This document shows positions 8,901 to 11,607 of a stretch of 11,607 bases of DNA, piece after piece. The stretch comes from a virus (Duplodnaviria > Heunggongvirae > Uroviricota > Caudoviricetes): IMG/VR virus record IMGVR_UViG_2850808358_000010. The stretch is one strand, 5' to 3'. The position numbers are program-made. Each line of letters opens with the position of its first letter. Positions within the stretch are counted from its first letter, which is position 1.

Positions 8901-11607
8901 GGAACCCGGCGGCTCCAGACGGAGCTGGCAGAGAATGGCATCATCGTTGGTCGTGACCGACTGGCACGTCTTCGTAAGGAGCTAAGGCTACGCTGTAAGC
9001 AGAAACGCAAGTTCAGAGCGACTACGAACCCGAACCACAATCTGCCAGTTGCGCCAAATCTGCTGAACCAGACGTTCGCTCCTACAGCACCAAATCAGGT
9101 CTGGGTGGCGGACCTGACGTATGTTGCCACACAGGAGGGATGGTTGTACCTCGCTGGCATCAAAGATGTTTATACGTGCGAAATTGTCGGCTACGCCATG
9201 GGAGAGCGCATGACAAAAGAGCTGACAGGTAAAGCCCTGTTTATGGCTCTCAGGAGCCAGCGCCCACCTGCCGGGCTAATCCACCACTCTGATCGAGGTT
9301 CACAGTACTGCGCATACGATTACCGGGTCATACAGGAGCAGTTTGGTCTGAAAACATCAATGTCGCGTAAAGGTAACTGTTACGACAACGCTCCGATGGA
9401 AAGCTTCTGGGGAACGCTGAAAAATGAGAGCCTGAGCCACTATCGTTTTAATAACCGGGATGAAGCCATCTCAGTAATACGGGAATACATTGAGATTTTC
9501 TACAATCGTCAGCGTCGTCACTCTCGTCTGGGGAATATCTCCCCGGCAGCCTTCAGGGAAAAATATCATCAGATGGCTGCTTAAAAAAAGAACAAATGGT
9601 AGTGTCCGCTATTGCCAGTACACCTCAAAGGGGTTCATGTATTAAAAGTCGACGGAGTTAAAGAACGTTGGGTCGACTTAATGGAGATTTCAAAATGGGC
9701 AAGAAAGAACAAGGATCATTACCTCTCCCAAGAGGAGTAACTATTCGTCAATACAAGAATTGCTCTACATTAGTTGTAACCTTCACATATAAAGGGGTTC
9801 TTTGCAGAGAACCCTTACCAAGGCTGGAAGCTAACGCAAAGGGGATTAAGTATGCAGAGCGACTTCTCGGAGAAATAAAAAACCAAATCTGTGATGATTC
9901 ATTCGATTTTTCAAAATACTTTCCAAACTCCAGGAAGTTAGCATTATTTGGAATGGTAAAGAAGAATAAAAGTGTGAGAGATTACCTAGATGAATATCTG
10001 GAAATTTGCAAAAACAGAAAGTTATCACCTTCAACAATAAATGGATATGAAAAATGCGTATCTGCATTATCGGAACTACATAAGCTACATGTCGTTGACC
10101 TGACACCAGCAATATTAAAAAAATGGATTTCAAGAAGAACAACAAAACTTAAGACCATAAGAAACAATCTGTCATTTTTAAGAAGCGCAGTAGATGAAGC
10201 GGTCACTGACGGACTTATAACGATAAATCCTGTAAAACTGGTTAGTGCAAGTAGATACCATGCGGTTAACCATACAGCCAATGCTGATGATTATGAAGTG
10301 GATCCCTTCACGCCAGCAGAGGCAACAGCTATCTACAACGCCTGTCTCTATCAGGAATGGAGAAATCTTTTTTGTTTCGCATTCAATACAGGCCTTCGAA
10401 GCTCAGAATTATGTGCATTGCGTTGGTCTGATATTGATTTTATTGGGCATACCGTTCACGTACAGGTCGCTTCTGTCGTTGGTGTAATAAAAGGAACCAA
10501 AACAAAAGCAGGGACCAGAAAAGTTGAATTAAACAATGAAGCCATAATGGCATTGCAGTCCCAGAAATCATTTACGATGATGAGAAGTGATTTTGTATTC
10601 AGTGATCCAAAAACACGCAAGCCGTGGGCTAATTCAGCTGCGATTCGCAAGAAAGCCTGGATTCCGACGCTTAAAAAAGCCGGAGTTCGTTACCGCAATC
10701 CATATCAGACCAGGCATACATTCGCTACACAGCATATCAGCCAGGGGGCAAATTTATTCTGGCTTGCCGGTCAAATGGGACACAAAGGACCAGAAATGCT
10801 GTTTAGACACTATGGTTCATATTTATCAGAATATGATGGCAAGACTGCAATCTCAAAAGTCATCTAGCCACTTAAATATTTCAAAATATGTACTAAGGTA
10901 GGACACAGAATAGACACCGACTTACACCTGAAATACATAAAAATATACAGAAACGATATGAAATCTTTTGTTTTTCATATCGTTATGTAATTTTGGTGTT
11001 TGGGTTCAACTCCCGCCAGCTCCACCAATCATGATTGGACGGTGTAAGGACAACACCAATAAAAACAGGAAGTTAGAATTCTCAGCAGGACACCGACCAG
11101 ACGGTGAGGAGACATAAAAGGATACGCAAAGGAGCCGCGGCTCCTGGTGACATGAAAGCCCACAGATGTGGGCTTTTTCGTTGATGGTCAGAACGACCAG
11201 TTCACACCAGCTACCCCGTTCCACGGGGATTCCACACCGGCACCATGGCTATACCCCACCCCAAGATGCCCGCTTAACGTACTGCTGAATGAGGCTTTAA
11301 TACCTGCCTGGTATATTCCACGTCTGCCCGACAAATCATTGACGAAATTACCGTCACTATTCACTTTCACCCGGTTATCATCGACAAATTCTTTGCGCAC
11401 AGCCGCCTTCAGCCACGGCTCAACTTCCATACCGTTCCCCAGACGCATGTTGTAACTCAGCGTTGCACCCAGTTCACGATATAAACTGCGGGTATCGACT
11501 GATTTCGATTCCATGCCATTGGATAAATGATATTCAGGGTTATCAGCGGTGAACCCCGTTAACGATGCATACGGCGTCAGGTTCCAGTTACCATCGGTAA
11601 ATCGCAT

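Follow-up and report, generated by a model that had tools for sequence, protein, structure and literature searches.

Integration of phages at the tmRNA gene

The gene ssrA, which encodes transfer-messenger RNA (tmRNA), is an established insertion site of Shiga toxin (Stx) phages, as stated in a passage of PMC3491183 that cites Ogura 2007. A passage of PMC10107115 that cites Williams 2003 describes the tandem accretion of elements at ssrA together with displaced 3' fragments of the gene, and Table 1 of that paper tabulates the variants of these displaced ends. For t(m)DNA, the anticodon loop, the T-loop and the 3' end are distinguished as sublocations of integration (bioRxiv 10.1101/2020.11.02.365908). 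Here we analyse a stretch of 11,607 nucleotides (nt), referred to below as the window, from the IMG/VR virus record IMGVR_UViG_2850808358_000010 (Caudoviricetes), in which a copy of the last 26 nt of ssrA lies downstream of a phage integrase gene, int. Positions 10868-11179 of the window most probably represent the right attachment site, attR (P arm, core and B'), of a lambdoid prophage integrated into ssrA, and we put the probability of this reading at about 0.93. The window matches the chromosome CP026877.1 (L007) with 0 mismatches.

The displaced end of ssrA

The core of the attachment (att) site lies at 11002-11027 on the plus strand, corresponding to 2216055-2216080 of CP026877.1, and consists of the 26-mer GGGTTCAACTCCCGCCAGCTCCACCA. 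This sequence occurs only once in the window, even with 3 mismatches allowed, and was present in 0 of 200 dinucleotide shuffles. On a fetched region of the K-12 chromosome (L004), ARAGORN and the Rfam family RF00023 place ssrA, 363 nt in length, at 1094-1456, and the window 26-mer is identical at 26/26 positions to nt 338-363 of that gene, i.e. to its last 26 nt. The original prediction had read these nucleotides as the T-arm, acceptor and CCA of an enterobacterial tmRNA, and alignment with ssrA bears this out. On the structure line of RF00023 the 26-mer begins with the last 3 nt of the T-stem 5' strand, continues through the T-loop (7 nt) and the T-stem 3' strand (5 nt), and finishes with the acceptor 3' strand (7 nt) and ACCA. 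The block of identity thus opens at the third base of the T-stem 5' strand and closes at CCA, and the displaced end in the window has the intact sequence CGCCAGCTCCACCA.

No tmRNA body was detected in the window by ARAGORN, and an Rfam scan at E<=1 gave no tmRNA match there, in keeping with the earlier statement that only the end of the gene is present. Since 26 nt are too short for the Rfam tmRNA model, the identity of the sequence was established by direct comparison. In annotation, the 26-mer is best labelled as a displaced fragment of ssrA, as psaA is in K-12, rather than as a tRNA-like gene. Displaced ssrA ends with decay variants known from the literature (delta-T357 CCAGC-CCACCA and CCAGC-----CA) are found at the loci L049, L058, L086, L093 and L002.

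Evidence for a recombination junction

Homology between the window and E. coli xis-int modules of about 95% identity extends from 9628 to 11025-11027 and ends at CCA. Past this point at least 10 types of right flank are found among the IMG/VR relatives; L001 and L010 carry the same int and an identical P arm, but a P4-type island with a second integrase past CCA. The unoccupied site was searched for with a synthetic chimera, in which 150 nt of ssrA were joined to the window flank. This query matches E. coli chromosomes in one piece with 99% identity, and coverage of 80% or more of its length is reached in about 2,528 of 5,426 complete genomes. The DNA to the right of CCA is therefore the native downstream sequence of ssrA.

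An occupied site with an intact prophage is present in E. coli 2013C-3264. Here, ssrA is followed by an intact Stx1a prophage, xis-int, an identical 26-mer and ypjA, with 47,859 bp from CCA to CCA and the full ssrA at the end opposite int. The deposited genome of the free phage LMessi (PP925823.1) carries an exact 27-nt ssrA block 133 nt past the int stop. Its occurrence at the same position in a free phage genome indicates that the ssrA block belongs to the phage attachment site, attP; LMessi is a member of another subclade, the subclade of the window itself not having been seen as a free phage. The nearest int relatives in the phage collection are only about 70% identical. In PhiR12, phi467 and phiES15 there is no ssrA block within 700 nt past int, and these phages presumably use other integration sites. 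The right end of the K-12 element CP4-57 (pseudogene psaA) and that of a P4-like satellite in strain cq9 have the same terminal chromosomal base as the window junction, their ssrA fragments being decayed variants known from the literature (PMC10107115, Table 1). Taken together, the break in homology at CCA, the empty sites, the intact relative and the attP of a free phage support the earlier claim that the 26-mer is the scar of site-specific integration at ssrA.

Several observations weigh against an attR at this position. The partner site, attL with the full ssrA, was not seen for CP026877.1, where the sequence read reached 306 nt left of the window, and the Shigella-type loci that were fetched are all devoid of a tmRNA gene within 10 kb. 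On the left side of the remnant, the sister genome CP026845.1 (L005) has ygcN. Polymorphisms place the crossover within the 26 bp only to the right of the GGG/GAG position. As the remnant has been truncated by the insertion sequence (IS) IS600 and rearranged, attL and ssrA need not adjoin it. The earlier prediction that the window contains neither the full ssrA nor the other att copy is correct, although they possibly no longer flank the remnant.

The integrase gene, the xis remnant and the P arm

The int gene (9695-10867, plus strand) encodes an intact lambda-type tyrosine integrase of 390 amino acids (aa), as judged by Pfam and full-length alignment, and is transcribed towards the att site. 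Its N-terminus matches PF12167 (Arm-DNA-bind_2, residues 12-80, E = 2.6e-17) and its C-terminus PF00589 (Phage_integrase, residues 206-373, E = 6e-19), and SAM-like domains were also matched in Pfam. The protein aligns over its full length with 80 relatives, is matched exactly on 15 contigs, and can be aligned with the solved structures of the Tn1549 and lambda Int recombinases through the TGLR, RHTF, MGH and RHYG motifs. No intact gene for a cognate excisionase is present upstream of int in the window. What is left is an xis remnant at 9630-9740 (plus strand), identified by alignment and by translation against the annotated excisionase of L001, that consists of the C-terminal 36 codons of a protein of about 71 aa and is devoid of a start codon; in relatives the gene is intact.

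Between the int stop at 10867 and the 26-mer are 134 nt (10868-11001, plus strand) with a guanine plus cytosine content of 28%. This is the phage-derived P arm of the att site, as delimited by alignments of 40-46 relatives. The tmRNA end is located 132-134 nt past the int stop in 46 of the 69 relatives for which downstream DNA is available; the remaining 23 IMG/VR relatives have other sequences downstream of int, or decayed cores. In the same 40-46 aligned arms, a block conserved in the family, AATATTTCAAAAT, directly follows the int stop, and conserved G(G/A)AC motifs recur about 11 nt apart. Two (A/T)ATGCAC motifs at a spacing of 11 nt are also present in the P arm and recur in the P' arms of LMessi and the 2013C-3264 prophage, and a further conserved block, TATTCAATnnGTTA, resembles the consensus for integration host factor (IHF). 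In LMessi, both the P and the P' arm carry pairs of A[AT]AT[GA]CAC at 11-nt spacing together with phased [AG]GAC, and the motifs of the window subclade are variants of these. Plausibly, the conserved blocks of the P arm are candidate Int arm-type and IHF sites.

The inverted repeat between int and the core

An 11-bp perfect inverted repeat had been noted between int and the core. The repeat is real, although it is 12 bp and not 11 bp long, with arms AACGATATGAAA (10952-10963) and TTTCATATCGTT (10973-10984) and a 9-nt loop (10952-10984, no strand assigned). The spacings first given, about 85 and 18 bp, were essentially right, with 84 nt separating the int stop from the repeat and 17 nt separating the repeat from the 26-mer. 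A perfect 12-bp repeat arose in 0 of 100 shuffles of the whole window and in 2 of 5000 shuffles of the AT-rich arm. The hairpin folds as RNA at -16.6 kcal/mol (z = -4.35). It is restricted to the subclade of the window, and its right arm overlaps the IHF-like block of the family. We regard the hairpin as a lineage-specific feature rather than a conserved part of the att site. The only other perfect 12-bp inverted repeat of the window, AATCCGGAAACG with a 6-nt loop, is found at 4951-4980, beside the IS4 insertion.

The right flank and the P' arm of related phages

The original prediction had placed the boundary between mobile DNA and an autotransporter locus at the junction. The edge of mobile DNA is indeed found there, but the autotransporter locus does not begin directly beyond it, the first 152 nt or so being the displaced trailer and terminator of ssrA. 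This segment (11028-11179, plus strand) consists of the native 3' trailer, the palindrome GGAGCCGCGGCTCC and an intrinsic terminator, whose hairpin at 11155-11176 is followed by a T-run. In at least 8 enterobacterial genera (loci L105-L119), the DNA immediately beyond full-length ssrA is this same trailer-terminator module, its carriers including Klebsiella, Raoultella, Leclercia, Trabulsiella, Pseudenterobacter, Mangrovibacter and other Escherichia species, and similarity across genera stops immediately past the ssrA terminator. Next comes the 3' end of the autotransporter gene ypjA/ehaD (11188-11607, minus strand), which encodes the beta-barrel domain and shows 99.1% identity to E. coli chromosomes annotated as ypjA/EhaD, with a Pfam Autotransporter match in L007. 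Just right of the window, at L007 12160-13356, an IS110-family element splits ypjA in this genome.

When the ssrA trailer is compared without gaps with the P' arms of related phages, 54/95 positions match for LMessi and 48/95 for 2013C-3264. In 5000 shuffles the mean was 27-28 and the maximum 45, and other flank types gave 23-35. [AG]GAC motifs occur at identical offsets (10, 21, 61, 72 and 83) in the trailer and in the phage P' arm, and the P' arms have a terminator of their own at the same distance as that of the ssrA trailer. Judged by these alignments, the phage P' arm is a diverged, ungapped homologue (50-57% identical) of the host ssrA trailer. With odds somewhat below even, the att region as a whole might be homologous to the ssrA locus over about 180 nt, and not just 26. 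Either the phage would have captured the 3' end of the ssrA transcription unit and built Int-binding sites in it, or the trailer would itself be a fossil phage arm. In both cases the attR of the window, made up of a new P arm, the core and a P'-like trailer, would be a hybrid that resembles attP and may have retained the ability to bind Int and IHF. The homology between P' arm and trailer is the one observation that goes slightly beyond the textbook, and it bears on how phages acquire att sites in tRNA and tmRNA genes.

Alternative explanations

Other origins of the junction have to be considered. IS600 and IS4 have been very active in the region, and the ssrA side of the prophage is gone from related Shigella-type loci; the 26-mer could thus be a stump of ssrA that lost its 5' part by deletion or IS activity, with no site-specific integration involved. 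The sequence to the left of the 26-mer, however, is a phage arm and not ssrA upstream sequence. This arm is common to 46 int relatives, at a fixed spacing, and to LMessi, and identity to ssrA breaks off at the same base in independent lineages, so that a stump is effectively refuted already and retains next to no probability. Very improbable, too, is the delivery of an int-att module to its place beside ypjA by IS600-mediated transposition or rearrangement. Such a process would be in line with the IS600 copy that abuts the int module at 9627 and with the inverted IS600 copies that bracket the remnant, but it is already contradicted by a flank that opens at the exact base that comes after ssrA in unoccupied genomes, and by E. 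coli relatives that have the same order of int, 26-mer and ypjA and are free of IS600.

Two further alternatives concern the sequences on either side of the core and not the origin of the core itself. The flank from 11028 to about 11125 might be a fossil P' arm, left downstream of ssrA by an ancient member of the same phage family and since fixed there, in which case the junction would separate a recent from an older element. The match between trailer and P' arm, which for both phages exceeds the shuffle maximum, and the shared [AG]GAC offsets are in favour of this, as is the recurrence of the same phased motif in the P arm, for which the host has no counterpart. Nevertheless, we consider it rather unlikely: a trailer and terminator that directly follow ssrA in at least 8 genera, with synteny ending there, are as expected of a native ssrA transcription unit, and the opposite direction, namely capture of the host trailer and terminator by a phage and their replacement on integration, explains the same homology as well as the distance of the phage terminator. 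As for the P arm, the 12-bp hairpin might be a functional RNA element, either a terminator of int or a signal for stability or retroregulation. It lies on the sense strand downstream of int, its fold is stable and non-random, and it is partly kept in the closest relatives (L025, L026 and L001) with one compensatory change from G-C to A-T. Yet it was not called in a terminator scan, the stem being AT-rich (2 G-C pairs in 12) and followed by no T-tract, and over 40 relatives the stem showed no covariation, the proportion of paired cells being 37.3%, compared with 36.9% in shuffles, with slid controls equal or higher. The feature conserved at the position of the hairpin is the IHF-like sequence block, which suggests protein binding on DNA, and int transcripts can be ended by the displaced ssrA terminator. 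An RNA function of the hairpin is thus improbable.

Proposed mechanism of integration

The preferred reading of the junction as attR leads to the following model. Directly downstream of int, the attP of the phage would contain a block of 26 bp that repeats the 3' end of ssrA exactly. The layout of P arm, core and native flank shows that integration took place by crossover inside this block, most probably mediated by Int. A functional ssrA would thereby be regenerated at the far (left) end of the prophage, which is attL, and the 3' end that ssrA had originally would be displaced, together with the native trailer and terminator, to the right end beside ypjA.

The length of the identity block varies between subclades (26, 27 or about 37 nt), and all three versions start in the T-stem and end at CCA. 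From this shared extent we infer that the most likely place of strand exchange is the 7-nt T-loop or its close vicinity, between the symmetric strands of the T-stem; the rest of the identity block might be kept identical so that a functional tmRNA is restored. In its position the block matches what would be expected of the T-loop sublocation of t(m)DNA integrases. The longer tmRNA-like block of about 37 nt belongs to one int subclade and has a G-to-A change in the T-stem.

State of the element and decay by IS elements

The element is a defective prophage remnant, in which int and attR are intact. Upstream of int lies an IS600 copy of 1264 bp (8364-9627, plus strand), with transposase open reading frames (ORFs) at 8428-8730 and 8766-9584 and ends that were set by comparison with an inverted copy at 1-367. 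In its terminal inverted repeats 20 of 30 positions agree, BLAST matches carry IS600 annotation, and the domains HTH_Tnp_1 and rve are found at the corresponding positions of L007. This IS600 took the place of the whole immunity and early-left region and of the 5' half of xis. Given these deletions, autonomous excision is not expected, and the remnant is predicted to be unable to excise on its own. The second, inverted IS600 (1-367) cuts the late region after an HNH gene, and the inverted pair brackets the phage remnant. An IS4 insertion (4986-6400; transposase at 5202-6314, plus strand) is located between the Q antiterminator gene and a rusA remnant, and the relatives L005 and L006, in which this insertion is absent, encode an intact RusA of 123 aa.

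In CP026845.1 a truncated ygcN is found to the left of the left IS600. We take ygcN to lie roughly 140 kb from ssrA in K-12. The junction of the remnant with truncated ygcN through IS600 points to a large IS600-mediated rearrangement. The same remnant, from DnaB to the portal gene and with neither int nor attR, is present in three S. sonnei-like chromosomes (L012, L015 and L017), where it abuts bamE-recN-nadK-grpE or raiA-pheA through IS elements. These copies devoid of int suggest that the ssrA prophage is an old fossil, which is common among Shigella-type genomes and has been rearranged repeatedly. The content of IS600, IS4 and IS911 and the genome rearrangement suggest, but do not establish, that the host of the window is Shigella or resembles enteroinvasive E. 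coli. With this junction, a prophage remnant in a Shigella-type genome is delimited precisely on its right side, which helps to reconstruct genome decay driven by IS elements.

Other features of the phage remnant

A group of Rfam matches above the gathering score is found on the minus strand at 3860-4275, just upstream of a gene for an ORF6N antirepressor-like protein (3259-3822). These are isrK (4186-4262), C4 antisense RNA (4077-4160), c4-a1b1 (4223-4275) and sRNA-Xcc1 (3860-3943). Together with the ORF6N gene, these RNAs look like a c4/ant immunity-like module of the P1/P7 type within a lambdoid remnant. A 253-aa ORF that reaches 4020 has probably been called too long. A phage-borne cluster of tRNA genes (2797-3107, minus strand) separates the antirepressor-like region from the lysis genes, in the order Met(cat)-Arg(tct)-Thr(tgt)-Gly(tcc), which has been kept in all related Shigella-type remnants.

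Comparison with known systems

The junction is a known kind of feature, as the use of ssrA by Stx and lambdoid phages, displaced fragments of the gene and the label psaA are all established. It confirms ssrA as a heavily used integration hotspot and adds no new principle. At psaA, the attR of CP4-57 in K-12, there is likewise a displaced ssrA 3' fragment that ends at the same chromosomal base and is followed by the same trailer, terminator and ypjA. CP4-57 differs in being a P4-type island with its int beside ssrA, on the attL side, whereas the int of the window faces attR and belongs to a lambdoid phage. In addition, the fragment of CP4-57 is short and of the delta-T357 variant CGCCAGC-CCACCA (PMC10107115, Table 1), whereas the copy in the window is intact over 26 nt.

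The Stx1a prophage of 2013C-3264 shares with the window element the order of late genes, Q, replication genes, early region, xis, int, core and ypjA, as well as the 26-mer and the flank, and its integrase is homologous to that of the window at about 80%. It differs in being complete (47.9 kb), with ssrA at attL. In the window element, by comparison, IS600 and IS4 have brought about the loss of xis, the immunity region and structural genes, and there is no stx in the window. The int of LMessi is homologous to that of the window (about 71% nt identity), its P arm shares the conserved blocks, and its 27-nt ssrA block is followed by the P' arm. In contrast to the window element, it belongs to another subclade, is without the 12-bp hairpin and has arm motifs of different sequence.

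With phage lambda the window element has in common a heterobivalent integrase with an N-terminal arm-binding domain, the transcription of int towards the adjacent att site, and AT-rich arms with phased repeated motifs and an IHF-like site, the arm and IHF sites of the window being putative. The bacterial attachment site of lambda is intergenic and has a 15-bp core, whereas the target of the window element is the end of a structural RNA gene, from T-arm to CCA. The P2-type ssrA integrators SopE-phi and Fels-2 belong to a different type of phage and have an integrase of another family. They display the same unmutated CGCCAGCTCCACCA end as the window element, an end with which excision would restore a wild-type ssrA (PMC10107115, Table 1).

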